From an uncultured Eubacteriales bacterium (lineage in GTDB: Bacteria; Actinomycetota; Coriobacteriia; Anaerosomatales; JAAXUF01), in assembly GCA_964388455.1 (NCBI GenBank), contig CAYMAN010000005.1, positions 2,920-66,919 on the forward strand: a stretch of DNA of 64,000 nt, written 5' to 3'. The translations under genes and the position numbers were made by a program. Position 1 is the stretch's first letter; each line of letters starts with the position of its first letter. Below the pieces are notes generated by a model that saw nothing but the letters and a program-made list of their open reading frames with translations, was not told the origin of the DNA and ran no database searches. Positions 15,706-50,553 of this stretch are shown one piece after another.

Positions 15706-15792
15706 CTAGAACCCATATTGGACAGCCCTCTTCCCTTACCCGGGGAAACACGAGCATGGGCGAGCCGTGGTGACCGGGGCTCGCCGTACTCG

Positions 15793-15893
15793 CAGTCTCC
15801 TTTCCAAGTGGGGAGGCGCCACCGTTTCCAGTGACACCCCGGCCCGACAACCATGGCGCGGATGCGCTGTAGGTCCGAAGGGCTCGGAGACTG
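15793..15893 (-). ncRNA. Moco/Tuco-riboswitch-like element in the FDH-operon leader
   Basis: An 8-bp closing stem CAGUCUCC...GGAGACUG encloses CUCCGAGCC, an internal GGAAACGG loop, GCGCCUCCCC and UUGGAAAGG. These are the conserved blocks I recall from the Moco RNA motif. A paralogous element lies at 34340-34442. Confidence 0.6.
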
Positions 15894-15948
15894 TCTTATT
15901 CGGTTGAATCAAGCACGATCTACGCGTTCACGACCCTGTGAGGTCGAG

Positions 15949-18580: not shown

Positions 18581-20221
18581 CTAGATGTTCAGGTCGGTAT
18601 GGCAGCGCAAGCACAACGACGCTCCGGGATACGGAGCGATGATCTGATTCTGATAGTCGACCGCACCGTGGCAGCCATAGCACAAGCGAACGTCGTGCCC
18701 TGCGTTCGGCAGACTCCCGGCGGTCCCATCGTGCGCTGGCGACGACGCAGCGGTTGAGAACCCGATATGGCAGTCATCACAAGTGTACGGCTTCCCATCG
18801 TACGGTTTGCCACCTCGGGTCGTTCCGGTTTTGAAGTGCACGGCGTGCTCGGCGAAGCCCTTGTTCTTGATGGAAGTGGGCGGCTTCTTCGTCATCTCTT
18901 CATGGCACGGTACGCAGTTCTTCGAGATGAGCTCCGCCTTGGCGACCTTCTGGTGGTGGCAGTTCTGACACGTGGCCCGATTCGTGTGGCACACATTGCA
19001 GTCATCGGTCGTCACGCCGGGAGCCGGCCGGTGATTCTCGATCCAGCCGGTGGGGTGCGGCATGACGGTCTTGTGGCATCGCTGGCACGACTTCGCGTCA
19101 TGACACGAACCACACGCGCCCTTGCCGCCAAGGTACAGCGGTCCGTGCTTGGTCTTCCAGTCGGCCTTGAGATGGTCCTTCGGTACGACCGACTTGGCGG
19201 GCGCATTTGGCGATTCACTCTTGCCTGTGTGGCACTTCACACAGAAGGCGGACTTGTGACACATGGCGCAGTACGCAGGGTCAGCGTTGGCCGTCTTCTG
19301 GTGTTTGCCCCGCACAAACGACTTGGTGTGATTCTTGGGAACCAGGTCGAAGCTCTTGGGGTGGCACTTGAGACACGCGTCCCCGGCGACGAGCCCCTGT
19401 GTCGAATGCTCGAGCCCGTGGCACCGGTAGCAGGACAGCATCTCGGGCTTGGTCGCGCCATCTGCCGTGTGTCCGAACGTCGGGTGGCACACGCTGCATT
19501 TGTAGTTGCGCTCGACGTGCGCCGAGTGGGCGAAGATGAGCGGCCCGGGCATGAAAGCGTCAAGATTGGGATGGCAGTAAGAGCACTGCGACATCGTCGT
19601 CGAACCCGTCGGATAGATCTTGATCGATGGGTCTTTCGCCTTCTCGGTGATTATTGAAGCGTATGTGGGAGGCATGGGCGGGATATCGAGATTCTTGTCC
19701 TTGTGGCAGACGTCGCAGTCTTTGACGGACTCATGGCACATCATGCACTGGTTGACACCGGAATCGTTGGCGACGTCGGCGTGGGGCTTGTTGGGCCAGT
19801 CTTTGACGTGACTCTTGGGGCGCAGCGTCTTTGACTTCGTGTGGCACTTGTTGCACTCGGCGGTTGCGAGTTCGCCCTGAGGTCCATGCGAAACGCCGTG
19901 GCACGCGAAGCACACTTCCATCGGGACCGTCTCCGTGACGCCGTCCCGGTGGGGCATGCGGGCATGGCAACCGTCGCAAGCGACCATGAGATGGTTTCCG
20001 TGGCTGAAGATCAATCCCGGCTGGTTGACCGAGCCCAAGTCGAGGTGACACGGCACGCACTGTGAGCGGTCGACGGAAGCTGCGGTGTCGATGACCGGAT
20101 CGGGCGAACCTGGTGTCGCGGCCAATCCGAAACGCACAGAAGCAAGCAGGAAGGCGGCCACGAGAACAGTCGCGGCCACCCCCCAAACCCAGTTATGTCG
20201 ATTGTGTCGTGCGTCAATCAC
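18581..20221 (-). CDS. Membrane-anchored multiheme c-type cytochrome, 20 CxxCH motifs
   Basis: N-terminal TM VWGVAATVLVAAFLLASV. I count 20 CxxCH motifs, from CVPCH and CDGCH through CYGCH and CLRCH. GTG start with SD TAGGGAG. Confidence 0.85.
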   Translation of the reverse strand: MIDARHNRHNWVWGVAATVLVAAFLLASVRFGLAATPGSPDPVIDTAASVDRSQCVPCHLDLGSVNQPGLIFSHGNHLMVACDGCHARMPHRDGVTETVPMEVCFACHGVSHGPQGELATAECNKCHTKSKTLRPKSHVKDWPNKPHADVANDSGVNQCMMCHESVKDCDVCHKDKNLDIPPMPPTYASIITEKAKDPSIKIYPTGSTTMSQCSYCHPNLDAFMPGPLIFAHSAHVERNYKCSVCHPTFGHTADGATKPEMLSCYRCHGLEHSTQGLVAGDACLKCHPKSFDLVPKNHTKSFVRGKHQKTANADPAYCAMCHKSAFCVKCHTGKSESPNAPAKSVVPKDHLKADWKTKHGPLYLGGKGACGSCHDAKSCQRCHKTVMPHPTGWIENHRPAPGVTTDDCNVCHTNRATCQNCHHQKVAKAELISKNCVPCHEEMTKKPPTSIKNKGFAEHAVHFKTGTTRGGKPYDGKPYTCDDCHIGFSTAASSPAHDGTAGSLPNAGHDVRLCYGCHGAVDYQNQIIAPYPGASLCLRCHTDLNI

Positions 20222-21644: not shown

Positions 21645-22646
21645 CTATCCTGCGAACAGTGATCTGACTGAATCGATCATCGATCGAACCGCAGTCCGTA
21701 CCGTGCTCACAGCCGCGTACAGAGGGTTCTCGTCGTACACCTGCTGCGCGCTGTGCACGAGCACGCCGAAGTCGAGGAACGTATCGTCCATCTCGCCTGC
21801 GTGACAGGTGCCACACGTCTCAGGAAGGTTGTTGCGGTTGACCGCAGACTTGCGGTCGTCGGCAGCAAGCACTTGATGCGTCTCGTGACACTGCCAGCAG
21901 GCAGGAGCGTCTGATGCGCCCACCTGATAGGCGCGGCCATGGTAGTAGTCCATGTACTCGACCGTGTACTTCTCGTGGCACGACCCGCACATGGCGACCG
22001 CTGAGGCGCGAACGGCCTCGTTGCCCGCCGTGTCTTCTTTGCTGGGAATACCGTGTCCGCCGTGGCAGTCGCCACACAGAGGACGCGGCTTGCCCGGTGC
22101 CGAGGAATCGGCTGCGCCGACGGTGGACGAGCTGTCTCCGGGACGGCCTGCCGGCGAGTGCGCCCCACTGGTGTAGAGCGTGAACGCGTCTTTGTGGCAG
22201 TTCTTGCAGGACAGCTTGGCCACCTCGCGCCACTCTTCACCGTTCTTTACGATGGTGTCATGGGGCGTCTTGTACGCGAAGTCGACGTGGCAGCTGGTGC
22301 ACGGCACGTTCTTGTGCGCCGAGCCCTGAATTATCTCCGTGTCGACGTACAGGGAGATGATCTTGCCGGCCTGGATCCGCATGAGATTCTGGTCACCGTG
22401 GCACACGCCGCAACCCGACTTGCCGGCGGTCGGCAACGTCCAGTCGAGGTCGTACGTGGGTTTCAGCGGAGCCTTCTTGGTGACAGTCGCGGTCTTGGTC
22501 GCCGACTTAGACGAGGCAGTGACCGACGCGGGGACAGCTGGCATCGCCGTTGAAGTGGTGGCGGGGGCCGCCAAAGAGACCCCCGGAAGCCCAATGGCTA
22601 CCGCAAGCGCACCAGCAACAATGGTCGAGCGCAGAATCATCCGCAA
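21645..22646 (-). CDS. Secreted heptaheme c-type cytochrome
   Basis: Signal MRMILRSTIVAGALAVAIGLPGVSLA. Seven CxxCH motifs: CGVCH, CTSCH, CKNCH, CGDCH, CGSCH, CWQCH, CGTCH. The start is TTG 22646 or ATG 22640. Confidence 0.85.
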   Translation of the reverse strand: MRMILRSTIVAGALAVAIGLPGVSLAAPATTSTAMPAVPASVTASSKSATKTATVTKKAPLKPTYDLDWTLPTAGKSGCGVCHGDQNLMRIQAGKIISLYVDTEIIQGSAHKNVPCTSCHVDFAYKTPHDTIVKNGEEWREVAKLSCKNCHKDAFTLYTSGAHSPAGRPGDSSSTVGAADSSAPGKPRPLCGDCHGGHGIPSKEDTAGNEAVRASAVAMCGSCHEKYTVEYMDYYHGRAYQVGASDAPACWQCHETHQVLAADDRKSAVNRNNLPETCGTCHAGEMDDTFLDFGVLVHSAQQVYDENPLYAAVSTVRTAVRSMIDSVRSLFAG

Positions 22647-23727: not shown

Positions 23728-23970
23728 TTACACGTCCTCGATTAGTCCGCGCGCGTTGATCAGGATACCCGCCGCATCGAGGTACGTGGCGGCCCGCTCT
23801 TCGTCGGCGAGTTCGAGACGCAGGGCGATGCCACACCTCGAACCGAGCGTCTTGGGTGCCGGCATCGGAACGACATCTATCCCGAGGTCACCGAGCAGCG
23901 CCTCGGCGTCGAGCGCCGCGTGCGTCGACTCGAAGCCGAATGCGGCGAACTCACGTGGGGCCCGGGTCAC
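23728..23970 (-). CDS. Small DUF3343-like putative S/Se carrier protein
   Basis: 80 aa, FGFESTHAALDAEALL...PMPAP...SRCGIALR. The GTG start overlaps the cysteine desulfurase stop as GTGA. I know this family from selenium/sulfur-mobilisation neighbourhoods; the call is by recall only. Confidence 0.5.
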   Translation of the reverse strand: MTRAPREFAAFGFESTHAALDAEALLGDLGIDVVPMPAPKTLGSRCGIALRLELADEERAATYLDAAGILINARGLIEDV

Positions 23971-25157
23971 GGCTGCTCACCCGCGAGCTCCGCGAGCGCG
24001 GACAGCGCGGCGTCCACGTCGCTGTCCGTGTTACCGAAGCCGATGCCGAACCGCAGCGCCCCAGTGTCGAGCGTGCCGAGCGTGCGGTGGGCCCACGGCG
24101 CACAATGAAGCCCGGCTCGGGCAGCGATTCCATAGCGGCGATCCAGGGCGAATGCGAGCCTGTCCGCATCGATGCGCTCATGTGTGACTGACAGCACCGG
24201 CACGCGAACCTCCGCCGGCTCAGGCCCGAGCACGCGGAACCCGCCGATGCCGAGAATCCCCTCATGGAGCCGGCGCGAGAGGCGACGCTCCTCGAGACGC
24301 TGTGCTGTGGCGTGAACGCTCAGGAAGCGTGCGGCGGCACCCAGCCCTGCGATGCCGGGAGTGTTGGGAGTCCCGGCCTCGTAGCGATCAGGTCGCGCGG
24401 CGGGCGCCCCCTCGTCCTCGCTCGAGCCGCCGCCGGTGCCGCCGAGCACCAGTGGATTGGGGTTCACATCCGGCGACAGATACAGGACGCCGACACCCTG
24501 CGGTCCGAGCAACCCTTTGTGGCCCGAGCAAGCCCAGGCATCCGCACCCAGGGTCGCGAGGTCAACGTCGATGTGTCCGCCCGCCTGCGCCCCGTCCACC
24601 AGCATCATAGCGCCGTGCGCGTGGGCGATATCCGCGAGATCCGCGACGGGCTGGATTGCGCCGGTCAGGTTGCTGGCGTGTTGACAGACAACAGCCGCAG
24701 TTCGAGCGGCGGCTACGGCGGTCTCGACCTCGTCGGGATCGACCGTGCCGGTCTCGTCGGCCTCTACGACCACGAGTTCGACGCCGAGCGCCGCCAGCGC
24801 GTAGAGCGGCCTGGCGACGGCGTTGTGCTCCATCGAGCATGCCACGACCCGGTCGCCCGGCTTGATCAGGCCACGGAGCACCATGTTCATCGCCTCGGTG
24901 CAGCCGGGCTGAAAGAGCAGATCACGCGCGTTGGGCGCGCCGAGAAGCGCTGCGATGTCACGACGGGACTCGTGGATGAGGCGCGTGGTCGCCATCGCGA
25001 GTCGGTACGCACCGCGTCCGGGATTGCCACCATAAAGCGTCAGCGCATCATGGACCGCCGACACGACCTCAGGCGGCTTGGGCCACGACGTCGCCCCGTG
25101 GTCCAGATAGATGGTCTCGGCGTTGACCGTCGTCTGGCTGTCGCGCGTGTCAGTCAC
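23967..25157 (-). CDS. Class V aminotransferase / cysteine (or selenocysteine) desulfurase family protein
   Basis: IYLDHGATSWPKP, PLP-lysine context ACSGHKGLLGPQG, and active-site Cys context AGLHCAPWAHRTLGT. Confidence 0.8.
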   Translation of the reverse strand: MTDTRDSQTTVNAETIYLDHGATSWPKPPEVVSAVHDALTLYGGNPGRGAYRLAMATTRLIHESRRDIAALLGAPNARDLLFQPGCTEAMNMVLRGLIKPGDRVVACSMEHNAVARPLYALAALGVELVVVEADETGTVDPDEVETAVAAARTAAVVCQHASNLTGAIQPVADLADIAHAHGAMMLVDGAQAGGHIDVDLATLGADAWACSGHKGLLGPQGVGVLYLSPDVNPNPLVLGGTGGGSSEDEGAPAARPDRYEAGTPNTPGIAGLGAAARFLSVHATAQRLEERRLSRRLHEGILGIGGFRVLGPEPAEVRVPVLSVTHERIDADRLAFALDRRYGIAARAGLHCAPWAHRTLGTLDTGALRFGIGFGNTDSDVDAALSALAELAGEQP

Positions 25158-25160
25158 GCG

Positions 25161-25646
25161 CTAGCCGTGCCCGCCGCCGCACACCATCTCGACCGCATGC
25201 TCGAGCTGGGGTGCGATGAAGCCGAATGACTCTCGGGCGGCCTTCTCGGAACCGGGAAGGTTGATGATGACGGTCTGGCCGCGCTGCGCGGCGGTCGCGC
25301 GCGAGAGCATGGCGCGCTTGGTGACTTTGAGTGACTCGGAGCGGAGGTACTCGGCGATGCCGGGGACGGGGCGCTCAGCGATGTCCATGGTGGCTTCGGG
25401 GGTTACGTCGCGCGGACCGAGGCCGGTGCCGCCGCACGAGAAGACGATATCGGCATCCTCGACGTCACACATCTCGGCGAGCGAGGCGGCGATACACTCA
25501 CGATCGTCGGGGCAGACGTGGTAGGCGACTACCAGCCAGCCGGCTGCCTCGGCGAGCTCGATGAGCGCGCGGCCGGCGGTGTCCTCGGCCTCACCTGCAG
25601 AACGGGTGTCGGAGCAGGTCAGGACGCCGATGCGGAGTTCTGCCAC
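25161..25646 (-). CDS. MogA/MoaB-family molybdopterin adenylyltransferase-like protein
   Basis: VAELRIGVLTCSDTRS...FSCGGTGLGPRDVTPEA...INLPGSEKAA. GTG 25646 with SD GGAAGGGGAG; the track start 25892 (Pro/Arg-rich) is rejected. Confidence 0.8.
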   Translation of the reverse strand: MAELRIGVLTCSDTRSAGEAEDTAGRALIELAEAAGWLVVAYHVCPDDRECIAASLAEMCDVEDADIVFSCGGTGLGPRDVTPEATMDIAERPVPGIAEYLRSESLKVTKRAMLSRATAAQRGQTVIINLPGSEKAARESFGFIAPQLEHAVEMVCGGGHG

Positions 25647-25650: not shown

Positions 25651-26256
25651 CTACTCCCCTTCCGGGCTTGTGGTGACGCGGTTGCAGTTCTTCTCCGAGC
25701 GGGCCTCGGCTTTGGCGGCCTCCTCGGCGGCCTCCTTGGCGCGCTCGGCTGCGAACTCGGCGATGGACTCGGGCGAGGTGCGATCGCAGGTGCCGTCGCC
25801 GATAGAGAGCGTGGTGATGGTGTCGCCGACCTCGACGTCGCCGGCCTGGCGGACCACGGCGAAGATGCCCTCGCGCGGCATGACACAGTCACCGGCCTGG
25901 TAGTAGATGGCGCACTTGGTGTGGCAGACCTTGCCGATCTGGCTGATCTCGAGAATCACCGAGTCACCGATCTGGATCTGGCTGCCCATGGGCAACGCGA
26001 GCAGGTCGATGCCGGTGGTGGTGATGTTCTCGGCGAAGTCCCCGGCGTCCACGTCGAGGCCCTTGGCCTGCATGGTGCCGATCGACTCTGCCGAGAGGAG
26101 CGAGACCTGGCGATGCCAGTCGCCCGCGTGCGCGTCGGTGTCGAATCCTCGGTCGAGGATGAGGGTGCCGCGGGTGCCGGGTGTCTTGCGCATGGTCTTC
26201 TTGGGGCTCAGGTTGACCGAGGTTACGGTGCCGGGGCCGGGCAGGGGTGCTGTCAT
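25651..26256 (-). CDS. MOSC-domain protein
   Basis: Beta-barrel MOSC-like core ...HRQVSLLSAESI...GDFAENITTTGIDL...GKVCHTKCAIY. ATG 26256 overlaps the moaC stop as TGATG. Confidence 0.65.
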   Translation of the reverse strand: MTAPLPGPGTVTSVNLSPKKTMRKTPGTRGTLILDRGFDTDAHAGDWHRQVSLLSAESIGTMQAKGLDVDAGDFAENITTTGIDLLALPMGSQIQIGDSVILEISQIGKVCHTKCAIYYQAGDCVMPREGIFAVVRQAGDVEVGDTITTLSIGDGTCDRTSPESIAEFAAERAKEAAEEAAKAEARSEKNCNRVTTSPEGE

Positions 26257-26876
26257 CAGGTGTTCTCCTCGCGGGTCCACAGGCCGGACTTGCCGCCTTC
26301 TTTGCGAAGCAGGCAGACGTCTGAGATGACCATGCCTCGGTCAACGGCCTTACACATATCGTACACGGTCAGCGCAGCGACGCTGGCTGCCGTGAGCGCT
26401 TCCATCTCGATGCCGGTCTTGCCGTCGACTTCGACGGTGGCCGTGATGCGGATTCCGGTGCGCGCGCTGAGTGCCGGGCCGTTCGACGGCGCGGGAACGG
26501 CGGAACGCTCCGGCACGAGCTCGACGGCAGCGTGGGTGATGTTGAGCGGGTGGCACATCGGGATGAGCTCGGCGGTGCGCTTGGCGGCCATGATGCCGGC
26601 GATGCGCGCCGTGGCGAGCACGTCGCCTTTGGGTGCCGAGCCGGTCACGATCATCTCGAGGGTGGCAGGTGCCATCGCGATGAAAGCGCCGGCGACGGCC
26701 ACGCGATGGGTGACGGGCTTGTCGGCGACGTCGACCATACGTGCGGCGCCCGTGGCGTCCAAGTGCGTGAGTGCGCCCGGCGCGACGTGGACGGCGGGGT
26801 GCTGCGGGGTGTCGGGCGCGGCGGTGGGGGTGTCGGGTGTGCCCGTGGGGGGCGTGTCGGGGGTCTCGGCGGGCAT
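26256..26876 (-). CDS. moaC: Cyclic pyranopterin monophosphate synthase MoaC with Pro/Thr-rich N-terminal repeat
   Basis: [16 protein letters not shown]...[29 protein letters not shown]...[23 protein letters not shown]. Confidence 0.9.
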
Positions 26877-26879: not shown

Positions 26880-27913
26880 TCAGCCTCCGATCTGGGACAT
26901 GCGACGGTCGGTTCCGACGCGGTCCTGGTGGTTTTCGGGCTTGTCGTGCAGGCTCTGGCGGATGACGGCGCGGATGTCGTCGTCGGTGCCGGAGCGGAGT
27001 ACAGAGCGCACGTCGAGTTCTGCGTCCGAGAAGAGACACGGACGCAGGCGACCGTCGGCGGTGAGTCTCAGGCGGTTGCATTCACTGCAGAAGTGGTGCG
27101 ACAGCGGCGAGATGACGCCGATGGTCCCGGGCGCGCCGGAGAAGCGGTAGTACTTCGCGGGTCCCCAACCGCCCGGTGCCGAGTCGCGCTCGACGGCGAC
27201 GAGCTCGCCGAGACCGGCAGCGACACCCTCGGCTGAGATGCGGGCGATGACCTCGTCGGACGGCATGGTGTCGTCGCGCGTCCAGCCGTCGGTCTCTACG
27301 CCGCCGTCGGAGTGGCAACCCGCGCCCTCCTCGGCGATTCCGACGGGCATGTACTCGATGAAGCGTACGTGCAGCGGACGATCGAGCGTGAGCTTCGCGA
27401 AGCCGAGCAGGTCCTGCTGAAGCGAGCGGACCACGACGACGTTGAGCTTGATGGGCTTGAAGCCGACGTCGAAGGCCGCGTCGATGCCGGCGAGTGCGTC
27501 GGCGAGCTTGCCTCCGCGGGTGATGCGCTCGTAGACGTCGGGGTCAAGCGAGTCGAGGCTGATGTTGACGCGCTCGAGGCCGGCGTCGCGCAGATCGTGC
27601 GCGAACTTGGGCAGCAGCGTGGCGTTGGTAGTCAACGCGATGGACTCGAGGCCGGTGATGGCGCGGAGGCGACGCACGTGGTCGACGACACCGTGTCGGA
27701 CCAGCGGCTCGCCGCCGGTGAGGCGGATCTTGCCGATGCCTTCACCCACGGCGATTCCGGCGAAGCGTTCGATCTCCTCGAGGGAGAGCATCTCGTCATG
27801 CGGCTTGAAGGCTACGCCCTCGGCGGGCATGCAGTAGACGCATCGCAGGTTGCAGCGATCTGTCAAGGAGATGCGGAGGTAGTCTATGCGGCGACCGAAT
27901 GTGTCTGTGGCCA
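26880..27913 (-). CDS. moaA: GTP 3',8-cyclase MoaA (radical SAM)
   Basis: DTFGRRIDYLRISLTDRCNLRCVYCMP, and C-terminal CSECNRLRLTADGRLRPCL. GTG 27913 follows the mobB TAG directly, with SD GGAGGAG. Confidence 0.9.
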
Positions 27914-28519
27914 CTAGATCTCTCCTCCGTCCGGCGTGGTCCCCGAGGGCACCGTGCTCAGACAGTCCTCGTCGCCTTCGGCTCCTGCGGAACTGCGCGC
28001 GGTACCCCCGGGGACCACGCCTGCCAGGTAGCGGGTGCACACCATATCTGCCACTGCGATTGCATCCTCTAGACCGAACAGCGGGACGCCTTCAGGTGCT
28101 AGATCCGGGTTGTCGGTCACCAAGGCCACTAGCTCCTCCGGGGTGGAGATCAGGGACTCGCTTCTTGCTCGCCTCGATATCTCGATGCGTTGAGTGGCCT
28201 CGCGCTTGAAGCCCTCGGTGAGGAGGATATCGGCGCCAGAGTCAGTGGCGATCGTCGCCAGCTCTGGCAGCGTGTACTCGCGCTCTACTTTTGCGATGAG
28301 ACTGAACTTATCGGGGCTTGAGACCATTGTGGTGACGGCGCCGGCTCGGGCGTGGCGCCAGGAGTCCTTACCGGGGACGTCGATGTCGTAGTCGTGGACG
28401 TGGTGCTTCACGGTGGCTACGCGCACGCCTCGGCTCGAGAGCTCGCGGATGAGCTTCTCGAGGAAGGTGGTCTTGCCGGAGTCGCCCTTGCCGACGATGG
28501 AAACGATCGGAACCGTCAC
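27914..28519 (-). CDS. mobB: Molybdopterin-guanine dinucleotide biosynthesis adapter MobB
   Basis: P-loop IVSIVGKGDSGKTTFLEKLI...VATVKHHVHDYDIDVPGKDSWRH. The GTG start overlaps the upstream TAG as TAGTG. Confidence 0.85.
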   Translation of the reverse strand: MTVPIVSIVGKGDSGKTTFLEKLIRELSSRGVRVATVKHHVHDYDIDVPGKDSWRHARAGAVTTMVSSPDKFSLIAKVEREYTLPELATIATDSGADILLTEGFKREATQRIEISRRARSESLISTPEELVALVTDNPDLAPEGVPLFGLEDAIAVADMVCTRYLAGVVPGGTARSSAGAEGDEDCLSTVPSGTTPDGGEI

Positions 28520-28737
28520 TAGAAGCAGCCGAGATCGCAGTTGTGGACGCGCACTCCGGCCATATCCGCGGCGGTACCGGCGACCTTGTACGGGATGCCG
28601 GTGTCCTCGGCGAACTTGCGAAGCACAGGGCATGTGACCTTTTCGTCGACGGACTTGGCCTTGATGGCGTCCATCATTTCAGGTGTGACCTGCTCGACCC
28701 AGCGGGGATCGTGTGTCTTGGGACCCTTGTCGCTCAT
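28519..28737 (-). CDS. Small conserved-looking protein of unknown function, C-terminal HNCDLGCF
   Basis: 72 aa, translationally coupled on both sides (ATGA with moeA, TAGTG with mobB). Codon usage looks coding. I recognise no family. Confidence 0.5.
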   Translation of the reverse strand: MSDKGPKTHDPRWVEQVTPEMMDAIKAKSVDEKVTCPVLRKFAEDTGIPYKVAGTAADMAGVRVHNCDLGCF

Positions 28738-30044
28738 ACGGTGCCTTCTTCCATGTCGAGCCGGACGCAGTCGACCTGCGTGCCGGCGGGGAACACGCCT
28801 TCGTCCGCGGGGAGGACGACGAAGCAGTTGCCGCGGTGGGCGGCGGTGAGCAACGCCGAGGACTGGCTGTGCGGCAGCGACGCCAGGTAGCCGTCGCCGG
28901 ACGGATCACGCTCGATTCTGCCGCGCAGGTAGTAGCGACGGTCCTGCTTCTTCTTCACGTCATGCGCGAGTCGTGCCACCGTCACCGGCCGATCGATCGC
29001 CGAGAAGCCCATCATGCGACGGAGCGCCGGGCGCACGAAGATCTCGAAGCCGACGTAGGTGCTGGTGGGATTGCCCGGCAGGCCGAAGAACGGCACTCCC
29101 CGGATCGAGCCGAGCGTCTGCGGATTGCCGGGGCGCATCTTGACCTTGGCGAACGCGAGCTCGCCGAGTTCCTCGAGAATCGGCTTCACGAAGTCGAAGT
29201 CGCCCACTGACACGCCGCCGCTGGTCAGGATGAAGTCGCACTCCTCGGCGGCGAGATTGAAGGCGTCGCGCGTGGCATCGAGGTCGTCGAGGACGATCGG
29301 GTAGCGGACGGGAATCGCGCCGGCTGCAAGAACCTGAGCGGCGATCGAGTAGCTGTTGGAGTTGCGGATCTTGCCCGGACCCGGCTTCTCGGCGACCTCG
29401 ACGAGTTCGCTGCCGGTCGAGAGCACGGCGACGCGCGGGCGGCGGCGGACGCTGACGGTGGCGTGGCCGGTCGACGCGAGCAGGCCGATGCCCGCCGGGC
29501 CGAGCACGTCGCCGGCCTCGATGACGACGTCACCGGCGCACACCTCCTCGCCCTGCAGCCGGATGTGCTCGCCCAGGCGCGGCTCGAGCTCGAAAGCGAC
29601 CGTGGAGCCGAGACCACCATCGCCGGCGACCACGCGGGTGCGCTCGACCATCACGACGCTGTCGGCGCCTGAGGGTACGGCGGCACCAGTCATGATGCGG
29701 GCGGCCTCGCCGGGACCGACTTGGATGCCGGCGACGTCGTCGCCGGCGCCGATGTGTGCGATGACGAGCAGCTGGCCGGGGTTCTCGGCGGTAGCGCCTT
29801 CGAGGTCGGCGGCGCGAACGGCGAACCCGTCCATCGCCGAGTTATCGAACGGCGCAACGTCGATGTCGCTCACCGCGTCCTCGGCGAGAACGCGGCCGAG
29901 CGCGTCGAGCAGCGATACCTGCTCGGCGGGCATCGGCGCGATGCGGTCGAAGACGAGCTCGCGCGCCTCCTCGACGGTCATGACCGGAATCGACACGTCG
30001 GAATCCGCGATGGGCCTGGGTGCGGGAGTCGGGGTCGGGCTCAT
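28734..30044 (-). CDS. moeA: Molybdopterin molybdenum/tungsten transferase MoeA
   Basis: ...SDIDVAPFDNSAMDGFAVRA...ILTSGGVSVGDFDFV...FGLPGNPTS... The ATG follows the upstream TGA directly. Confidence 0.9.
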   Translation of the reverse strand: MSPTPTPAPRPIADSDVSIPVMTVEEARELVFDRIAPMPAEQVSLLDALGRVLAEDAVSDIDVAPFDNSAMDGFAVRAADLEGATAENPGQLLVIAHIGAGDDVAGIQVGPGEAARIMTGAAVPSGADSVVMVERTRVVAGDGGLGSTVAFELEPRLGEHIRLQGEEVCAGDVVIEAGDVLGPAGIGLLASTGHATVSVRRRPRVAVLSTGSELVEVAEKPGPGKIRNSNSYSIAAQVLAAGAIPVRYPIVLDDLDATRDAFNLAAEECDFILTSGGVSVGDFDFVKPILEELGELAFAKVKMRPGNPQTLGSIRGVPFFGLPGNPTSTYVGFEIFVRPALRRMMGFSAIDRPVTVARLAHDVKKKQDRRYYLRGRIERDPSGDGYLASLPHSQSSALLTAAHRGNCFVVLPADEGVFPAGTQVDCVRLDMEEGTV

Positions 30045-31481
30045 TCAGTCCTCCTCGGGAGGGGCGAGTACGCGCTGGGGGTGCGTGTAGACGGTGAGTT
30101 TGCCGCCGCGGGCGTAGCCGACAAGCGTGATGCCCAGCTCGGCACCGATCTCTGCCGCAAGGTCGGTGACCGCCGAGCGCGACGCGACGATGGGGACCGC
30201 GGCCTTGGCTGCCTTGACAGCCATCTCGTAGCTGATGCGGCCGGTGGAGATGAGCACGGTGTTGCGCGTGGAGACGCGGTCGAGCCAGGCCCGACCGAGC
30301 AGCTTGTCGAGCGCGTTATGGCGGCCGACGTCCTCGCGGACGAGCGCGAGTTCGCCGCCGAACGCCAGGCCGCACGCGTGCATGCCGCCGGTGTCGCGGT
30401 AGAGCGTGGCGGCGCGCGCCATATCGCCGACGTAGCGATAGAGCTCGTCGGCGGTGACGGTGAGGTCGCCGGTGACCGGCTCGAGACCGCGGGCGTGGCC
30501 GACGCTCGAGAACGTCACGCCCTTCCCGCAGCCGCTGGTCAGGTACCGCGTGCGGTGCACAAGGTCCTCGGGCACGACCTCGTCGCTGGTGACCCAGACG
30601 AAGCCGCGTTTGGCGTCGACGTCGACGGTGCGCAGCGCTTCGCGGTCCTCGAGCAGACCCTCCGAGACGAGGAAGCCTACGGCGAGCTCCTCGAGGTCGC
30701 TGGGCGTGGACTGCGTCGTGGCGACCTCGACGTCGTTGAGGTAGATGGTGACCGGACGCTCGCTGGGCATACCCCGCGAGCGACGCGTGGCGACTTCGAC
30801 GACCTCGATCTTGATGGGGCCGGCGTAGTGATCGCGCTTACTGCCCTGCTTGTCGGGCACCTCAGCGGTCTCGCGCGCCTCGGCGAGGTCGGCGGGGGTG
30901 TTCACGTTCACGAGCGAGCGCAGCTCGGGGTCGACGGCTCGCAGCGCCTCGAGCGGCAACTCGGCGACGCGCAGGGTCGAGATCATGGCGATGATGCGAC
31001 GACGACCGGTGGAGAGCGCAGCACGTGCGGCCGGGAGGCAGGCTTCGACGCGGTAGAGGGCGAGAAGCGGCTCCGGACCCTTCTCGCCGACCGGCAGGAC
31101 GACGTCCACGCCTTCTCGGACATCCCAGAGCGCGCGGATGACGTCGGGTTCGAGGTGCGGCATGTCGGCGGCCACGGCGAGAACCCACTCGTCTCCGGCG
31201 GCGGCCATGGCTGTGGCAAGGCCACCGAGCGGACCCTGGTACGCGACCTCGTCGGAGAGAATGCGGACGTCGGCGGGCAGCCCGGCTTCAGCGAGGGCTT
31301 CGGGACGGTTGGTGACGACGACCGTGTGATCGCAGACGCTTTGCACGACACCGACGACGCGCGACACCAACGGCTCGCCATCGACGGCGAGCAGCGTCTT
31401 GTCGACACCCATGCGCACCGACCGTCCACCGGCCAATACAGCCGCGGTGAGCGGCAGCGACGTGTGAACCCGCTGCGTCAT
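30045..31481 (-). CDS. Fusion protein: MobA (Moco guanylyltransferase) N-terminal domain plus FdhD (FDH sulfurtransferase/accessory) C-terminal domain
   Basis: The N-terminus LTAAVLAGGRSVRMGVDKTLL...GPLGG is MobA-like. The C-terminus ...GGMHACGLA...VGRHNALDKLLG...STGRISYEMAVKAAKAAVPIVASRSAVT is FdhD-like. Confidence 0.8.
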   Translation of the reverse strand: MTQRVHTSLPLTAAVLAGGRSVRMGVDKTLLAVDGEPLVSRVVGVVQSVCDHTVVVTNRPEALAEAGLPADVRILSDEVAYQGPLGGLATAMAAAGDEWVLAVAADMPHLEPDVIRALWDVREGVDVVLPVGEKGPEPLLALYRVEACLPAARAALSTGRRRIIAMISTLRVAELPLEALRAVDPELRSLVNVNTPADLAEARETAEVPDKQGSKRDHYAGPIKIEVVEVATRRSRGMPSERPVTIYLNDVEVATTQSTPSDLEELAVGFLVSEGLLEDREALRTVDVDAKRGFVWVTSDEVVPEDLVHRTRYLTSGCGKGVTFSSVGHARGLEPVTGDLTVTADELYRYVGDMARAATLYRDTGGMHACGLAFGGELALVREDVGRHNALDKLLGRAWLDRVSTRNTVLISTGRISYEMAVKAAKAAVPIVASRSAVTDLAAEIGAELGITLVGYARGGKLTVYTHPQRVLAPPEED

Positions 31482-31589
31482 CTTCCCTTACCCTTCACGG
31501 CCGTAAGCAGCCGATGCTTCGTGGCGAGGCGATGCCTCGATTGTCGCACACACGCGGAATCCGGAGTGCCGGCCCGGGTTCGCGCGTTC

Positions 31590-32708
31590 CTAGTCGGTGA
31601 TGGGTGCCCACCGTACCGCGGTGGCCTTGAAGAGCGCGAGTACCGGAGCTCCCGGCACCAGCCCGAGCTCGTCTGTAGCCGCACGGGACACACTTGCAGC
31701 AAGTCGCAAGCCGTCGGCATCGAGCACCACGTGGTTGCTCGCGCCACGGGGACTCACCGACTCGACTGACGCGCGAACACGGTTGCGCGCCGTCGTCGCC
31801 GGCAGCTCCGCCGTGATCTCGAACAGCATGACGTCCTCGGGGCGCACAGCCAGTCGCACGCGCGCGCCCACAGCCGCCGAGCCCGAAACGAACACCTCGA
31901 CGCCCTGCGCCGCACCCTGCACCGCGATGGTCACAAGCCCCTCGTCGGATGCTGTGACGATTCCGCGCGACGCCTCCTCCATGCCGAGGAACGCGGCGCT
32001 CCAGTCGTCTTCGGGGAGCCCCATCACCTCGTCGGCGGGTCCGCAGGCGACTATGCGGCCGGCGTTCATGATCGCGACCTGGTCGGCGATCACGAGCGCC
32101 TCGTCTTGATCGTGCGTAACGTAGACAACGGTCACGCCCGTCTCGCGCAGGATCGAAGCGAAGTCATGGGTGAGCTGACGCTTCAGCAGCGGGTCGAGGC
32201 TGGCCAGCGGTTCATCGAGCAGCAGCACCTGCGGCTCGACCACGAGCGCTCGGGCCAGCGACACGCGCTGCGCCTCTCCACCGGACAGCGCGAGCGCGCT
32301 GCGCTTCTCGTACCCGGCAAGGCCCACACGCTCGAGCGCGGCCGCAACCCGTGGCCCGCGCTCCGCCCGCGGTACGCCGCGCGCCGCGAGGCCGTACGCG
32401 ACGTTTCCTCCGACCGACCCCTTGAACAGGTACGGCCGCTGGAACACCGCCGCCATCGCAAGATGCCCCGCCCGATCGCCCATGGACACCGGAGCGCCGC
32501 CGAGAAGGATCGTCCCCGCATCAGGTTGCTCGAGAAGTCCGAGCACCGAGAGCAGCGTCGATTTTCCCGACCCACTGGGGCCGATGATCGCGAGCACACT
32601 GCCCGCTGCGACCTCCACCTCCGGGACGTCGAGCAGGAAGCCGCTCCTGGGGAACGTGCGTCGCACTCCGGTCGCTGAGATCGACAGCGGCGTCACTGAC
32701 GCATTCAT
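31590..32708 (-). CDS. tupC: Tungstate/molybdate ABC transporter ATPase with C-terminal TOBE domain
   Basis: Walker A GPSGSGKST, signature LSGGEAQRVSLARAL, Walker B LLLDEPLASLD, and a TOBE-like tail. Confidence 0.75.
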   Translation of the reverse strand: MNASVTPLSISATGVRRTFPRSGFLLDVPEVEVAAGSVLAIIGPSGSGKSTLLSVLGLLEQPDAGTILLGGAPVSMGDRAGHLAMAAVFQRPYLFKGSVGGNVAYGLAARGVPRAERGPRVAAALERVGLAGYEKRSALALSGGEAQRVSLARALVVEPQVLLLDEPLASLDPLLKRQLTHDFASILRETGVTVVYVTHDQDEALVIADQVAIMNAGRIVACGPADEVMGLPEDDWSAAFLGMEEASRGIVTASDEGLVTIAVQGAAQGVEVFVSGSAAVGARVRLAVRPEDVMLFEITAELPATTARNRVRASVESVSPRGASNHVVLDADGLRLAASVSRAATDELGLVPGAPVLALFKATAVRWAPITD

Positions 32709-33418
32709 CGGCTGTCACGCTCCCAGCGGTCGGCCGAAGTCTGGAGCCCTGTGAGAATCACGTTGACGAAGAGCACGATCGCCATGAGGATCGCCGCTAG
32801 GGCCAGGGCCTCACCGTAGCGGCCCATGCGCGTGAACTGCATGATGCCCGTCGTCATGACGCGCGTGTCGCCTTCGAGGTTGCCTCCCACCATCTGCACG
32901 GCACCGACCTCGGAGATGATTGCGCCGAACCCTCCGGCTACAGCAGCGATCAGGCCCATACGGGCTTCCGAGAGCGTGAGAATCGAGCGGCGCCATCGCC
33001 CCGCACCGAGCGAGCGCGCTTGGAGGATGAGCTCTCTGGGCACCGCGGCGACGGATGCGGCGGTGATCGCCATGACAATGGGAATCGCGATCACGACCTG
33101 CGCGATGACCATCGCCTGCTGCGAATACAGCAGCCCCAGATCGCCGAGCGGACCACGGCGCGAGAGCGTCATCGCGACGATCAGGCCGACGACGACCGGC
33201 GGCAGACCCATGCCGGCGTTGAAGATGACCAGCGCGGCACGCCTGCCGATGAAGCGCTTGGTGCCGACCAACAGGCCGACGGGTAGCCCGATGACAAGCG
33301 CGATCAACGTCGCGGTTCCCGACACGCGAACCGACGTGAACACGATCGTCCATACATCGACGGAGCCGGAGGAGAGCATCGCCCACCCCTCGCGCCACGC
33401 GTCCGTGAACAGCTGCAT
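32705..33418 (-). CDS. tupB: Tungstate/molybdate ABC transporter permease
   Basis: Six-TM permease with an EAA-like loop (ARSLGAGRWRRSILTLSEARMGL). Overlaps both neighbours. Confidence 0.75.
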   Translation of the reverse strand: MQLFTDAWREGWAMLSSGSVDVWTIVFTSVRVSGTATLIALVIGLPVGLLVGTKRFIGRRAALVIFNAGMGLPPVVVGLIVAMTLSRRGPLGDLGLLYSQQAMVIAQVVIAIPIVMAITAASVAAVPRELILQARSLGAGRWRRSILTLSEARMGLIAAVAGGFGAIISEVGAVQMVGGNLEGDTRVMTTGIMQFTRMGRYGEALALAAILMAIVLFVNVILTGLQTSADRWERDSR

Positions 33419-33442: not shown

Positions 33443-34336
33443 CTACTCGGCGTTCGGGACGAACAGCTGCTGTCCGAACTCCGCCACGCCGTACTCGCCG
33501 ATGACCTTCTGGCCATCAGCCGACAGGATCCAGTCGTTGAACGCCTGTGCGCCGACCTGGTTCTTGGCATCGGTCACCACGATGACGCCGTACTGGTTGA
33601 GCAGTCCCTTGTCCTTCTCGTACAGCACGACCAGGTCGGGATTGGCCTTCTGCGACGACAGGTAGGTGGCACGGTCGACGAGCGTGTAGGCGGCCTTGTC
33701 GTTGGCGACCTTGAGCGTCTCGCCCATGCCCTGACCGGTGGAGAGGTACCACGCGTCCGCATCAGGCGTCGGCGTGGGTGTCACACCGGCGTTCGCCCAG
33801 AGCTTCAGTTCCTTCTTGTGGGTTCCGGAATCGTCGCCACGAGAAACGTATAGTCCCTTGCCGGACTTGCCGGACTTCTGGATTGCGAGCATCGCAGCGG
33901 TGGTATCAGCCGAACCCTTGATCGCAGCAGGATCGGACGCGGGACCCACCAGAACGAAATCGTTGTACATGACGCTCTTGCGCTCGACTCCGAAACCACC
34001 GGCCACGAACTTCTCTTCGTCCGCCTTGGCGTGCACGAGCAGCACGTCTGCGTCCTTGGTCTCGCCCAACTTGAGCGCTTCACCGGTACCGACGGCGATG
34101 ACCTTGACCTTGTACTCAGGATTGGCCTTCTCGAACGCAGGAATCAGCACGTCAAACAGTCCTGAATCCTGTGTCGAGGTTGTTGAGGCCAAGACGACAT
34201 CGCTTGTCGTCGGGGTCTCGGCGGCTATAGGCGCTTCGGCTTTCTGCCCGCAACCCACAAGCGCCAATACCAGTACGACGGCGAGCGAGATGCCCGCCAG
34301 GCGCCTCTTGCGAGGCGCGGCGTTCGGGTGGTGCAT
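33443..34336 (-). CDS. tupA: Tungstate-binding lipoprotein TupA
   Basis: Lipobox LALVGC. TupA-type motifs LASTTSTQDSGLFDVLIPAFEK, VGTGEALKLGETKDADVLLVHA and SRGDDSGTHKKE. Confidence 0.8.
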   Translation of the reverse strand: MHHPNAAPRKRRLAGISLAVVLVLALVGCGQKAEAPIAAETPTTSDVVLASTTSTQDSGLFDVLIPAFEKANPEYKVKVIAVGTGEALKLGETKDADVLLVHAKADEEKFVAGGFGVERKSVMYNDFVLVGPASDPAAIKGSADTTAAMLAIQKSGKSGKGLYVSRGDDSGTHKKELKLWANAGVTPTPTPDADAWYLSTGQGMGETLKVANDKAAYTLVDRATYLSSQKANPDLVVLYEKDKGLLNQYGVIVVTDAKNQVGAQAFNDWILSADGQKVIGEYGVAEFGQQLFVPNAE

Positions 34337-34339
34337 ATG

Positions 34340-34442
34340 AATCCCCTTTCCACCGGGAGGCAGGGCCGTTTCCGTGCCCTACCCTATCGGTCCGGCATCC
34401 TTGGCCCATCATGGGCGGTAGGCGTACCGGACTCGGAGACTT
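34340..34442 (-). ncRNA. Moco/Tuco-riboswitch-like element abutting the tupA start codon
   Basis: AAGUCUCCGAGUCCGG...CCUACC...GGUAGG...CACGGAAACGG...CUGCCUCCCGGUGGAAAGGGGAUUCAUAUG. The 3' block closely resembles the E. coli moaA leader as I recall it (GCCUCCC...UGGAAAGG...AUG). The SD lies inside the conserved GGAAAGG. Confidence 0.7.
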
Positions 34443-34484
34443 TGGCCGCGCGGGTGCGCGACGGATTCCAGCATAGCGCACGAC

Positions 34485-34518
34485 CGCGCCCGGCACAGCA
34501 TCAACTTTTCCGGGCGCG
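34485..34518 (-). terminator. 9-bp GC hairpin downstream of mop
   Basis: CGCGCCCGG-N16-CCGGGCGCG, 9 nt after the mop stop. No clear U-tract follows. Confidence 0.35.
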
Positions 34519-34526
34519 AGTAGTGA

Positions 34527-34733
34527 CTATTCCTTGCCGAGAAGTACGTGGTCGGCCTTGATGATCGCAACGACTTCGTCGCCGACCGCGATGCCCATCT
34601 CTTTGACTGCGTCGACCGTGATAACGGACGTGATCATCTGACCACCGACATCCATCTTTACGAGCGCCTCTACGGCGCCTTCGCGGACTTCGGTGACCGT
34701 TCCCTTCAGTTGGTTGCGCGCGCTGAGCTTCAT
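34527..34733 (-). CDS. mop: Mop/TOBE molybdate-tungstate binding protein (molbindin)
   Basis: 68 aa, MKLSARNQLKGTVTEV...GQMITSVITVDAVKEMGIAVGDEVVAIIKADHVLL. Confidence 0.85.
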   Translation of the reverse strand: MKLSARNQLKGTVTEVREGAVEALVKMDVGGQMITSVITVDAVKEMGIAVGDEVVAIIKADHVLLGKE

Positions 34734-34849
34734 GACAAACCACCTTCCGACGAGTTAGCGGATTCTGCGGGCGCGTCGCAAGGCGCGCCTCACACATGAT
34801 TCATGCCCGCAAGTCGCACTCGTGAACCCGGCGGCGCAACTCGTCGGCT

Positions 34850-35740
34850 CTACGCAAGCCGCTCGCGCAGAAACGCCGAGAACGCCTCGGCTGCGTGGGT
34901 CGGCGTGCCCTTGGGGAGCACGGCGAAGTAGGTACGAATCGCCGGCGGCGTCGCGAGGTCCACGCGCGCGACCGTCCCTAGCGCAAGCGCCTTACCAGCG
35001 ACGTGCGACGAGAGCATCGCGACGCCCAGACCACCCTCGATCGCCGAGACAATCGCCTCACCGGTGCCGAGCTCCACCGCGACACGGAGCTCAGCGGGAT
35101 CGAGTCCGTTCTCGGCCAGGAAGCTCTCGCTGATCTGACGCGTGCCGGAACCGGACTCTCTTGTGACCCAGTTCGCGTCGGCGAGATCGGCCAGCGGCGC
35201 GGCTTTGCGCGTGGCAAGCGGTGAGGACGGCGGGCAGATGACGACCAGTTCGTCGGTGCCGAGTGGAGTGAAGTTGACCTTCGCACCCTTGACGATCGCG
35301 CCGGTCACGCCGAAGTTCGCGCGACCGTTCTCGACGGCCTCGACGACTTCGGTCGTGTCGTGAACGGTGATCGTGACTCCGACCTGCGGGTTCTCGGCGA
35401 GGAAGGGGCCGAGGAGGCGGGGAATCACGTAGACGCCGGGGGTCGTGCTCGCGGCGATGACGAGGCGACCGGTCACGGCTCCGGACAGCGCGGCTATCCC
35501 CTCGCGGGCGCATTCGAGCTCGGCGAGCACCTTGCGCGCGTAAGGCAGCAGCACGCGACCGGCCTCGGTGAGGTCGATGCGGCGGTAGCGACGATCAAGA
35601 AGCGTCGCGCCGGCGTCGGCCTCGAGCGCCTGGACCTGCATGGTGACCGCCGGTTGCGAGATCCCCATCTGGCGTGCCGCCTCCGAGAAGGAGCCGGCGT
35701 CGACGACAGTCACAAACGTACGCAGCTGTGGGATGTTCAT
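34850..35740 (-). CDS. LysR-family transcriptional regulator
   Basis: N-terminal wHTH MNIPQLRTFVTVVDAGSFSEAARQMGISQPAVTMQVQALE, followed by a substrate-binding domain. Confidence 0.9.
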   Translation of the reverse strand: MNIPQLRTFVTVVDAGSFSEAARQMGISQPAVTMQVQALEADAGATLLDRRYRRIDLTEAGRVLLPYARKVLAELECAREGIAALSGAVTGRLVIAASTTPGVYVIPRLLGPFLAENPQVGVTITVHDTTEVVEAVENGRANFGVTGAIVKGAKVNFTPLGTDELVVICPPSSPLATRKAAPLADLADANWVTRESGSGTRQISESFLAENGLDPAELRVAVELGTGEAIVSAIEGGLGVAMLSSHVAGKALALGTVARVDLATPPAIRTYFAVLPKGTPTHAAEAFSAFLRERLA

Positions 35741-50456: not shown

Positions 50457-50553
50457 TGGCGGAAGCGTGTGCGAATCGAACACACCCGGGAGGCTCTTCA
50501 CCCCCCACACTGGTTTTGAAGACCAGGGGCCCCACCAGGAACCATCCGCCTCC
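50457..50553 (-). tRNA. selC: tRNA-Sec (anticodon UCA), 97 nt with encoded CCA
   Basis: Minus-strand sequence: GGAGGCGGAUGGUUCCUGGUGGGGCCCCUGGUCUUCAAAACCAGUGUGGGGGGUGAAGAGCCUCCCGGGUGUGUUCGAUUCGCACACGCUUCCGCCA. It has a 6-bp D-stem with a 4-nt loop, an anticodon loop CUUCAAA, a long variable arm (6-bp stem), a T-arm GUGUG-UUCGAUU-CGCAC, and a 7-8 bp acceptor. An upstream TTGACA-17-GACAAT promoter lies at 50563-50591 and a downstream hairpin at 50419-50439. Confidence 0.85.

Follow-up and report, generated by a model that had tools for sequence, protein, structure and literature searches.

A P3-less Moco/Tuco-family riboswitch upstream of tupA, with predicted translational control of tungstate uptake, in an uncultured Coriobacteriia-like actinobacterium

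INTRODUCTION

The Moco RNA upstream of moaA in Escherichia coli is a cofactor-dependent genetic OFF switch whose ribosome-binding site (RBS) is located in the P1 stem, and it does not respond to tungstate (PMC2408646). It is the only family member for which cofactor-dependent control of the downstream gene has been demonstrated genetically (PMC2408646). In the study describing this RNA, Regulski et al. (2008) proposed that the architecture lacking the P3 stem serves to sense the tungsten cofactor (Tuco) (PMC2408646). Of the 176 family members compared, 58 had no P3, and these correlated with tupA/tupB or wtpA and with tungsten enzymes; the correlation between the absence of P3 and tungsten genes held in 17 of 19 organisms, and the exceptions were P3-less RNAs associated with a putative molybdate transporter and with putative Moco enzymes (PMC2408646). 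The E. coli RNA simply lost activity when its P3 was deleted, and direct ligand binding has not been demonstrated for any member of the family, the ligands of which are unstable cofactors (PMC2408646).

Eubacterium limosum carries five P3-less elements of the same Rfam family (RF01055), with sites upstream of tupABC, wor1, fetABC, and focA (PMC11725836). The transcript levels of its tupABC genes were unchanged under tungsten limitation, from which translational control was inferred (PMC11725836). P3-less elements also precede an operon for pterin synthesis and molybdate/tungstate transport in Syntrophomonas wolfei, in which three aptamers are arranged in series and the first two are followed by intrinsic terminators (PMC2408646).

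Here, we examined a 64,000-nt stretch of genomic DNA (hereafter, the window) from an uncultured bacterium, in which a riboswitch-like element had been predicted ahead of a tupABC gene cluster. As in S. wolfei, the element is combined with genes for pterin-cofactor synthesis and transport, but there is one aptamer and no terminator. We describe the identity, conservation, and predicted mode of action of this element, and we consider how many of the downstream genes it may control and which metal cofactor it may recognize.

RESULTS

An RF01055 element without P3 lies upstream of tupA

When the whole window was scanned against all 4227 Rfam families, three matches exceeded the threshold, one to tRNA-Sec and two to the Moco RNA motif (RF01055). 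The copy ahead of tupA, at 34328-34446 on the minus strand, scored 54.0 bits, with the family's gathering score set at 36 (E-value 3.8e-10), and matched the model over its full length (model positions 1-135). Its sequence, read from 34446 to 34328, is GCCAAAGUCUCCGAGUCCGGUACGCCUACCGCCCAUGAUGGGCCAAGGAUGCCGGACCGAUAGGGUAGGGCACGGAAACGGCCCUGCCUCCCGGUGGAAAGGGGAUUCAUAUGCACCAC. The original prediction had described a Moco/Tuco-riboswitch-like element at 34340-34442, a span that falls within this match, and the covariance-model search confirmed the assignment; the motifs that it quoted, GUCUCCGAG, CACGGAAACGG, and CUGCCUCCCGGUGGAAAGGGGAUUCAUAUG, are all found on the minus strand where it had placed them.

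The element has the P1, P2, and P4 helices listed in Table 1 and a P5 that consists of a 2-bp CC/GG helix. The segments CCGAG (after P1), CCUCCC, and GGAAAGG, together with a GNRA tetraloop and a receptor-like loop in P2, are all present. It shares with the E. coli moaA RNA the family model, the P1/P2/P4/P5 core, the GAAA tetraloop with the receptor-like P2 loop, and the three conserved segments, as well as the placement of the RBS on the 3' side of P1, an arrangement that points to OFF logic at the level of translation initiation. In contrast, the E. coli RNA contains a P3 that is needed for its function and precedes moaABCDE, whereas the window element has a 5-nt J2/4 in place of P3 and precedes a predicted tungstate transporter. 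Judged from its sequence, the tupA-leader element is a genuine, ordinary member of the known Moco/Tuco-cofactor riboswitch family.

One structural detail of the original prediction, a stem formed by CCUACC and GGUAGG, was not borne out. Across 30 homologues, these segments paired in 60% of cells, with no covariation and no better than in shuffled or slid controls; GGUAGG instead forms the 5' strand of P4, and CCUACC is part of the P2 internal loop, in the tetraloop-receptor region.

TABLE 1 Coordinates of the riboswitch, promoter candidates, genes, and tRNA-Sec discussed in the text
Feature	Position	Strand	Basis or remark
Mop/TOBE molbindin (68 aa), gene immediately upstream	34527-34733		TIGR00638 at 82 bits
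Candidate -10 hexamer TATGCT, putative promoter of riboswitch-tupA leader	34470..34475	-	Hexamer conservation
Moco/Tuco riboswitch aptamer and expression platform	34328..34446	-	RF01055; own covariance model R1, 113.5 bits
P1 5' strand GUCUCC	34435..34440	-	Rfam alignment; partner GGGGAU, 34346-34341
P2 helix, with internal CCUA...GG tetraloop-receptor-like loop and variable distal hairpin	34390..34432	-	Covariation, MFE fold
J2/4, CGAUA, 5 nt, site where P3 would sit	34385..34389	-	Rfam alignment, P3 columns deleted
P4 helix with GAAA tetraloop cap (34372-34369)	34358..34384	-	Covariation, MFE fold
tupA Shine-Dalgarno region, GGAAAGGGGA	34342..34351	-	P5 3' arm, AAA junction, and first five nt of P1 3' strand (34346-34341)
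tupA, periplasmic tungstate-binding protein, first regulated gene (predicted)	33443..34336	-	PF12849, 157.7 bits
tupB, ABC permease	32705..33418	-	PF00528; TupB NF041773, 142.6 bits (cut-off 320)
tupC, ABC ATPase with C-terminal TOBE	31590..32708	-	PF00005 and PF03459; 4-nt overlap with tupB
Candidate internal -10, TGC-GACAAT	31540..31548	-	Positional hexamer conservation; -64 from mobA-fdhD start
mobA-fdhD fusion (GMP attachment; sulfurtransferase/FDH maturation)	30045..31481	-	PF12804 and PF02634
moeA (metal insertion)	28734..30044	-	PF03453, PF00994, PF03454; ATG abuts mobA-fdhD stop
Conserved 72-aa ORF, no family	28519..28737	-	4-nt overlap with moeA
mobB, start refined to GTG 28519	27914..28519	-	PF03205; TIGR00176, 127.8 bits (cut-off 76.2)
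moaA, start refined to GTG 27914	26880..27914	-	PF04055 and PF06463
moaC	26256..26876	-	PF01967, 185.5 bits
MOSC-domain protein, ATG 26256 one possible start	25651..26256	-	PF03473
mog/moaB-type molybdopterin adenylyltransferase	25161..25646	-	PF00994; TIGR00177, 119.6 bits (cut-off 85.35)
Class V aminotransferase, cysteine desulfurase/selenocysteine lyase family	23967..25157	-	PF00266, 295 bits
Putative Se/S carrier protein, last gene	23728..23970	-	PF11823, 52.4 bits; 4-nt overlap with desulfurase
tRNA-Sec	50461-50553	-	Rfam scan

Conservation and covariation among related loci

A scan of the TupA protein against 185,579 species-representative genomes yielded 80 loci. The closest TupA relative among these genomes was 74% identical, and the closest relatives were all from metagenome-assembled genomes labelled Coriobacteriia, Actinomycetota, or "Eubacteriales." The only other source of an identical TupA sequence was a 4.8-kb Logan contig from run SRR13723396. 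Homologous elements were searched for first with a regular expression and then with a covariance model (R1) derived from the upstream regions of 30 homologues, which matched 62 sites across 81 sources. A P3-less element was located directly 5' of tupA in 51 of the 80 related tupA loci, and two relatives (L050 and L051) carried tandem pairs of elements. In a control, RF01055 found again all 12 of 12 R1 matches in seven loci, and seven loci without an R1 match gave no RF01055 match either. None of the 62 matches had an insertion at J2/4, which was never outside 1-5 nt and in almost all cases measured 4-5 nt; the longer R1 matches owed their length to a longer distal P2, not to a P3.

In a structure-blind MAFFT alignment, 89.0% of cells were in standard pairs, compared with 74.3% in shuffles, and changes on both sides were seen in 22 of 33 pairs; when the partners were slid by 1-3 columns, only 29-51% paired. 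The model-fitted alignment of 62 sequences, which is biased towards the structure, gave 90.4% paired and both-side changes in 26 of the 33 pairs, and shuffles across the two alignments were 71-74% paired. By helix, both sides had changed at four of six positions of P1 across the homologues and in 8 of 11 pairs of P4 (62 sequences), and all eight proximal pairs of P2 covaried; P5, with 2 bp, was almost invariant and is therefore uninformative on covariation. The GAAA tetraloop was kept in 61 of the 62 sequences, the CCUA and GG of the P2 loop were invariant or nearly so in the homologues, and in 30 homologues the segments CCGAG, CCUCCC, and GGAAAGG were either invariant or conserved to 90% or more. 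We judge the covariation of P1, P2, and P4 across the tupA-linked elements to be strong.

The second RF01055 copy of the window (15781-15900, minus strand) scored 64.8 bits and also lacks P3. When the two copies were compared for compensatory changes, a check named in the original prediction, they were 59% identical and differed by six compensatory pairs. A chance or decayed resemblance to the family, devoid of any regulatory role, might be read from the modest score of the tupA copy beside that of the second one (54 vs 64.8 bits), but it would have to be reconciled with so low an E-value and with orthologous elements at the same place in 51 loci that show compensatory changes and invariant junction nucleotides. 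The comparative data effectively refute such a resemblance, which we consider scarcely conceivable.

The second copy lies approximately 255 nt from the start of a selenocysteine formate dehydrogenase (FDH) gene. After it come an alternative hairpin that draws on the P1 3' strand and then a U-run hairpin, an arrangement suggestive of control at the transcriptional and not the translational level at that site. The FDH is TAT-exported and of the FdnG type, with an in-frame UGA at 14819-14821 in the context HQARI-U-HSSTV, and the window also encodes selD, selA, and selB (54950-59771) in addition to tRNA-Sec.

The Shine-Dalgarno sequence of tupA is part of the aptamer

The AUG of tupA (34336-34334, minus strand) begins 5 nt past P1. 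Its sole Shine-Dalgarno (SD) sequence, GGAAAGGGGA (34351-34342), overlaps the conserved GGAAAGG, in agreement with the original prediction. Because the AUG is only 5 nt beyond P1, there is no room for an intrinsic terminator, and a terminator scan of the leader was empty; a terminator was therefore rejected as the expression platform of the tupA copy. In approximately 37 relatives, the model match (including a 22-nt 3' flank) extends to or beyond the tupA start codon, and thus the layout with the SD in P1 is conserved. In lower-GC Firmicutes, the aptamer is located 40-300 nt upstream of tupA, and these elements presumably have separate platforms.

The tupABC element of E. limosum and the window element are both RF01055 members without P3 directly upstream of tupABC. 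However, a separate RBS-sequestor hairpin and an anti-sequestor have been proposed for E. limosum tupABC (PMC11725836), whereas the SD of the window element lies within P1, a layout that resembles the fetABC2 case of E. limosum. Unlike those of E. limosum, the window element stands before a much longer cluster and belongs to a high-GC uncultured Coriobacteriia-like actinobacterium.

Thermodynamic folding recovered P2 and P4, and P1 was absent from the minimum free energy (MFE) structure. The energies were -48.1 kcal/mol for the consensus structure, -51.1 kcal/mol with P1 enforced, and -53.2 kcal/mol for the MFE structure, and the SD bases were mostly unpaired in the unconstrained (ligand-free) ensemble. 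These energies and the open SD fit a model in which the ligand would supply the few kilocalories per mole that P1 needs to close over the SD.

A strict sigma-70 consensus scan of the leader found nothing, after which phylogenetic footprinting of TANNNT was used. Of 46 high-GC homologous loci, 34 had a TANNNT hexamer at a distance of 20-38 nt upstream from where the model begins; 38 such hexamers fell in the two bins from -40 to -21, compared with 0-4 per 10-nt bin elsewhere, and several relatives also showed TTGAGN-17-TATNCT. This pattern suggests that a promoter specific to the leader lies immediately before the aptamer. In the window, transcription would start at about 34463, a few nucleotides downstream of the candidate TATGCT.

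The Mop/TOBE molbindin gene upstream of the leader occurs only in some relatives, and a GC-rich hairpin that lacks a U-run (34485-34518) lies after it. The molbindin gene is preceded by a gene for a LysR regulator whose best match is a "selenium metabolism-associated" family. A 98-aa ORF at 34501-34797 was rejected, being Arg-rich, in the wrong frame, and without a family match; the real gene in this region is that of the Mop/TOBE protein.

Gene content of the downstream cluster

Family searches and homologue-guided refinement of start positions supported 13 genes between 34336 and 23728 (Table 1). The original prediction had counted fourteen; an additional 89-aa ORF (31478-31747) was rejected, since it matches no family, does not pass the GC3 filter, and overlaps tupC in a different frame. 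The predicted content of tungstate uptake, pterin-cofactor synthesis, and a desulfurase with an Se/S carrier agreed with the family searches.

The only NCBIfam match of the binding protein was TupA (NF041772), at 207 bits against a cut-off of 400. The protein belongs to the PBP_like_2 fold family and was similar to the TupA proteins of known structure from Geobacter sulfurreducens (3LR1, E-value 7e-64) and Desulfovibrio alaskensis (5MY5, E-value 5e-60). Its ligand site retains Arg, Thr, Asp, and His, among them the equivalents of Arg118, Thr124, and Asp170 of TupA-type proteins, with the motif STTS in place of TTTS. Because TupA and TupB both score below the NCBIfam equivalog cut-offs, the selectivity of this predicted transporter for tungstate over molybdate is not certain. 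The gene tupB follows tupA after 24 nt and has an SD-like sequence of its own, GGGGACGGG.

Among the biosynthesis genes, mobA-fdhD matched FdhD (TIGR00129) at 192 bits, above the cut-off of 140.9. The 72-aa ORF had no Pfam or NCBIfam match, and it is found at the same position in approximately 28 related loci with 42-87% identity. The starts of mobB and mog/moaB were refined by homologue alignment; mobB overlaps the preceding ORF by 1 nt (TAGTG), and moaA overlaps mobB likewise (TAGTG) and has the SD GGAGGAGAG. For the MOSC-domain protein, homologue alignments extend to codon 1 of a longer ORF starting at GTG 26280. The class V aminotransferase reached 367.9 bits with TIGR01977 (cut-off 377) and 299.7 bits with SclA (cut-off 525). 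No homologue of moaD, moaE, or moeB was present among the 13 cluster genes. Together, the encoded functions could make up a putative assembly line for a tungsten bis-pterin-guanine-dinucleotide (bis-PGD) cofactor, with steps for cPMP synthesis, adenylylation, insertion of the metal, attachment of GMP, and sulfuration by FdhD, alongside the desulfurase/Se-S carrier pair.

The role of FdhD and IscS in cofactor sulfuration is an established pathway. On this basis, the FdhD domain, the MOSC protein, and the desulfurase would fit the sulfuration of a bis-PGD cofactor for an FDH such as that downstream of the second aptamer. The gene context is consistent with tungsten use.

The gene for the Se/S carrier is followed by a 205-nt gap with a promoter-like TTGACA-N18-TAGTAT (23693-23664) ahead of cytochrome b. 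A pair of genes for cytochrome b and a multiheme cytochrome follows the cluster.

How far control by the element may extend

The original prediction proposed that a single aptamer may gate the whole cluster and that there was no obvious internal promoter. The first part held for tupA, in that the element is placed to act on translation initiation of this gene, and direct control of tupA is well supported; control of the whole cluster was not established, given the SD of tupB and the internal -10-like hexamer described below. The second part was too strong.

From mobA-fdhD to the Se/S carrier gene, neighboring genes either overlap by 1 or 4 nt or are separated by no more than 4 nt, and the sole long intergenic gap in the cluster is that of 108 nt between tupC and mobA-fdhD (31482-31589). 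Among 25 relatives, 22 had a TANNNT hexamer (typically TACAAT, TATGAT, or TACACT) at 55-76 nt before the start of mobA-fdhD, and none was found in the preceding 60 nt of the tupC coding sequence; the gap otherwise shows little sequence conservation. In the window, the corresponding hexamer is GACAAT, which follows TGC. An internal promoter ahead of mobA-fdhD is therefore plausible. A structured element or third aptamer in this gap was rejected, with a fold z-score of +0.58 relative to shuffles and R1 sites at only two places in the window.

We weighed whether all 13 genes (10.6 kb, from 34336 to 23728) could nevertheless respond as one unit, through translational coupling and Rho-dependent polarity. 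The tight junctions, which include the short tupA-tupB spacing and the overlap of tupB with tupC, speak for such a unit, as do the conservation of the entire gene order in approximately 25 related genomes, a terminator scan that found no intrinsic terminator inside the cluster above chance, and a strict promoter scan whose only promoter-like site came after the last gene; Rho is also known to extend the reach of translational riboswitches, as reviewed in the literature. Against these points stand the -10-like hexamer at a conserved distance and the separate SD of tupB. Furthermore, three relatives (L006, L007, and L009) carry extra genes and extra P3-less aptamers between tupABC and mobA-fdhD, and the two halves of the cluster are therefore separable. 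No rut-like composition was found in tupABC: a scan for Rho loading sites found no C-rich, G-poor stretch there (the maximum of C minus G was 0.14, with G still at 26%) and thus did not speak for polarity that extends to the distal genes, although we regard this composition scan as uninformative. On balance, a single unit of 13 genes appears rather doubtful. Control of tupBC by the element is plausible, and control of the ten distal genes, which would depend on read-through and polarity, can be put forward only tentatively, as somewhat improbable.

Tungsten or molybdenum cofactor

The element was originally suggested to be a tungsten-cofactor-sensing variant. It does have the P3-less architecture linked to the tungsten cofactor; from this architecture and the gene context we infer tungsten specificity, and the class to which the element belongs had already been published. 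A sensor of the molybdenum cofactor, or one that does not discriminate between the two metals, would leave the absence of P3 as a lineage or structural variant. Such a sensor would accord with the fact that the Tuco preference of P3-less RNAs rests on correlation, with the reported P3-less RNAs on a putative molybdate transporter and on putative Moco enzymes (PMC2408646), and with the scores of TupA and TupB under the equivalog cut-offs. D. alaskensis TupA also binds molybdate, more weakly, and the downstream biosynthesis genes serve both cofactors. However, all 51 tupA-adjacent elements lack P3, the binding protein keeps TupA-type site residues, and the second P3-less copy precedes the selenocysteine FdnG-type FDH, an enzyme type that is often tungsten-dependent in anaerobes. 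The published association of P3 absence with tungsten genes, seen in all but two of the organisms compared, points the same way (PMC2408646). We consider a molybdenum-sensing or non-discriminating element possible but on the unlikely side, and we favor recognition of the tungsten cofactor.

DISCUSSION

Our analysis points to the following mechanism. The P3-less RF01055 element makes up the tupA leader and is probably transcribed from a promoter of its own, and the P1 3' strand with the adjacent GGAAAGG would be the RBS of tupA. When the cofactor is abundant, it would bind to the aptamer and stabilize P1; the closed P1 would occlude the RBS, so that less TupA would be produced and less tungstate imported, constituting negative feedback. 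When the cofactor is scarce, P1 would be unstable and the RBS open. Direct control would fall on tupA; tupBC and the ten further genes could be affected only through translational coupling or transcriptional polarity, and the distal genes may escape control by the leader by way of an internal promoter in front of mobA-fdhD. We regard this account as a whole, that is, a P3-less Tuco-type leader exerting translational OFF control of tupA through an SD in P1, as very probable.

A more far-reaching reading would have one translational P3-less aptamer, of the compact high-GC type with its SD in P1 that is conserved in about 50 Coriobacteriia-like genomes, coordinate tungstate uptake by means of coupling and polarity with the whole assembly line for the tungsten bis-PGD cofactor, 13 genes and 10.6 kb in all, and truly discriminate the tungsten from the molybdenum cofactor. 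We think this improbable. If it were true, the locus would be a tractable system for defining Tuco recognition.

Both the P3-less class and its association with tupABC had been described before, and the lineage and the operon context are new in detail only; the result leaves the current understanding unchanged. It adds to a riboswitch class known since 2008 one well-supported example and approximately 50 orthologues in uncultured Coriobacteriia-like Actinomycetota. P3 is missing from every tupA-linked copy that we found, and this strengthens the published association of P3-less elements with tungsten. These elements may be of use in annotating tungsten metabolism in metagenome-assembled genomes and in choosing candidates for the biochemical proof of tungsten-cofactor recognition.

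Sequences surrounding and interrupting the cofactor cluster

The only long gap within the cluster lies between tupC and mobA-fdhD (31482–31589, minus strand). A −10-like TANNNT hexamer was found 55–76 nt 5′ of mobA-fdhD in 22 of the 25 relatives, and in several loci a conserved Shine-Dalgarno region, GGGUAAGGGA, precedes the mobA-fdhD start codon. This gap likely contains an internal promoter. Upstream of the tupA riboswitch are a LysR regulator, which is retained 5′ of tupA in many relatives, and a Mop/TOBE molbindin, which is retained in only some. The top NCBIfam match of the LysR protein was “selenium metabolism-associated LysR” (234.7 bits, below the cut-off of 250). Regulation by a protein may thus operate here in addition to the riboswitch.

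The ORF between moeA and mobB encodes a protein with the sequence MSDKGPKTHDPRWVEQV...HNCDLGCF, which had no match in Pfam or NCBIfam searches. It occurs at the same position in approximately 28 related loci, with 42–87% identity, and its product may be an undescribed accessory protein in tungsten/molybdenum-cofactor assembly.

Features identified in the window
Feature	Position	Strand	Remarks
Multihaem cytochrome c	8876–10114	−	After FDH alpha subunit and 4Fe-4S protein
4Fe-4S protein	10120–11010	−	After FDH alpha subunit
FdnG-type formate dehydrogenase (FDH) alpha subunit	11024–15526	−	TAT signal; in-frame UGA at 14819–14821
Promoter-like TTGACA-N17-TACGAT	16009–15981	−	Near FDH-leader Moco RNA
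72-aa ORF	28519–28737	−	Between moeA and mobB, overlapping both
−10-like hexamer, tupC/mobA-fdhD gap	31540–31548	−	TGC-GACAAT at −64
Mop/TOBE molbindin	34527–34733	−	68 aa; upstream of tupA riboswitch
LysR regulator	34850–35740	−	Upstream of tupA riboswitch
tRNA-Sec	50461–50553	−	72.8 bits
selB	54950–56923	−	
selA	56868–58343	−	
selD-like AIRS protein	58812–59771	−	

Other P3-less Moco RNAs and the FDH region

Some relatives carry additional P3-less Moco RNA copies. Two related tupA loci from public genomes each have two further aptamers (13103–13233 and 13966–14094 in L006; 12790–12920 and 13648–13777 in L007), located in the interval that separates the first tupABC from another, 38–43% identical tupABC-like set, and two other loci (L050 and L051) have tandem aptamer pairs upstream of tupA, with two matches each.

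The P3-less copy in the FDH leader of the window lies in a region (15640–15900, minus strand) with a folding z of −4.56 and has an expression platform unlike that of the tupA copy. Its P1 3′ strand, GGAGAC, is able to pair instead into a long downstream hairpin, followed by a second hairpin and then UUUUUCAUUUU, approximately 110 nt ahead of the FDH start. The in-frame UGA of the FDH sits within the motif HQARI-U-HSSTV. Its two ORFs combined span approximately 1500 aa, compared with approximately 1000 aa for the usual FdnG, and the Molybdopterin domain match is divided across a large span. A complete selenocysteine toolkit (tRNA-Sec, selB, selA, and selD-like) is encoded near the cluster.

The FDH and cofactor clusters are flanked by several multihaem cytochromes c and by repeated pairs of NHL-repeat beta-propeller and TPR proteins; together these features lie at 3718–6323 and 16047–18537 (minus strand) and at 18581–20221 and 21645–22646. 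This arrangement may point to a module for electron transfer in the periplasm or outside the cell.
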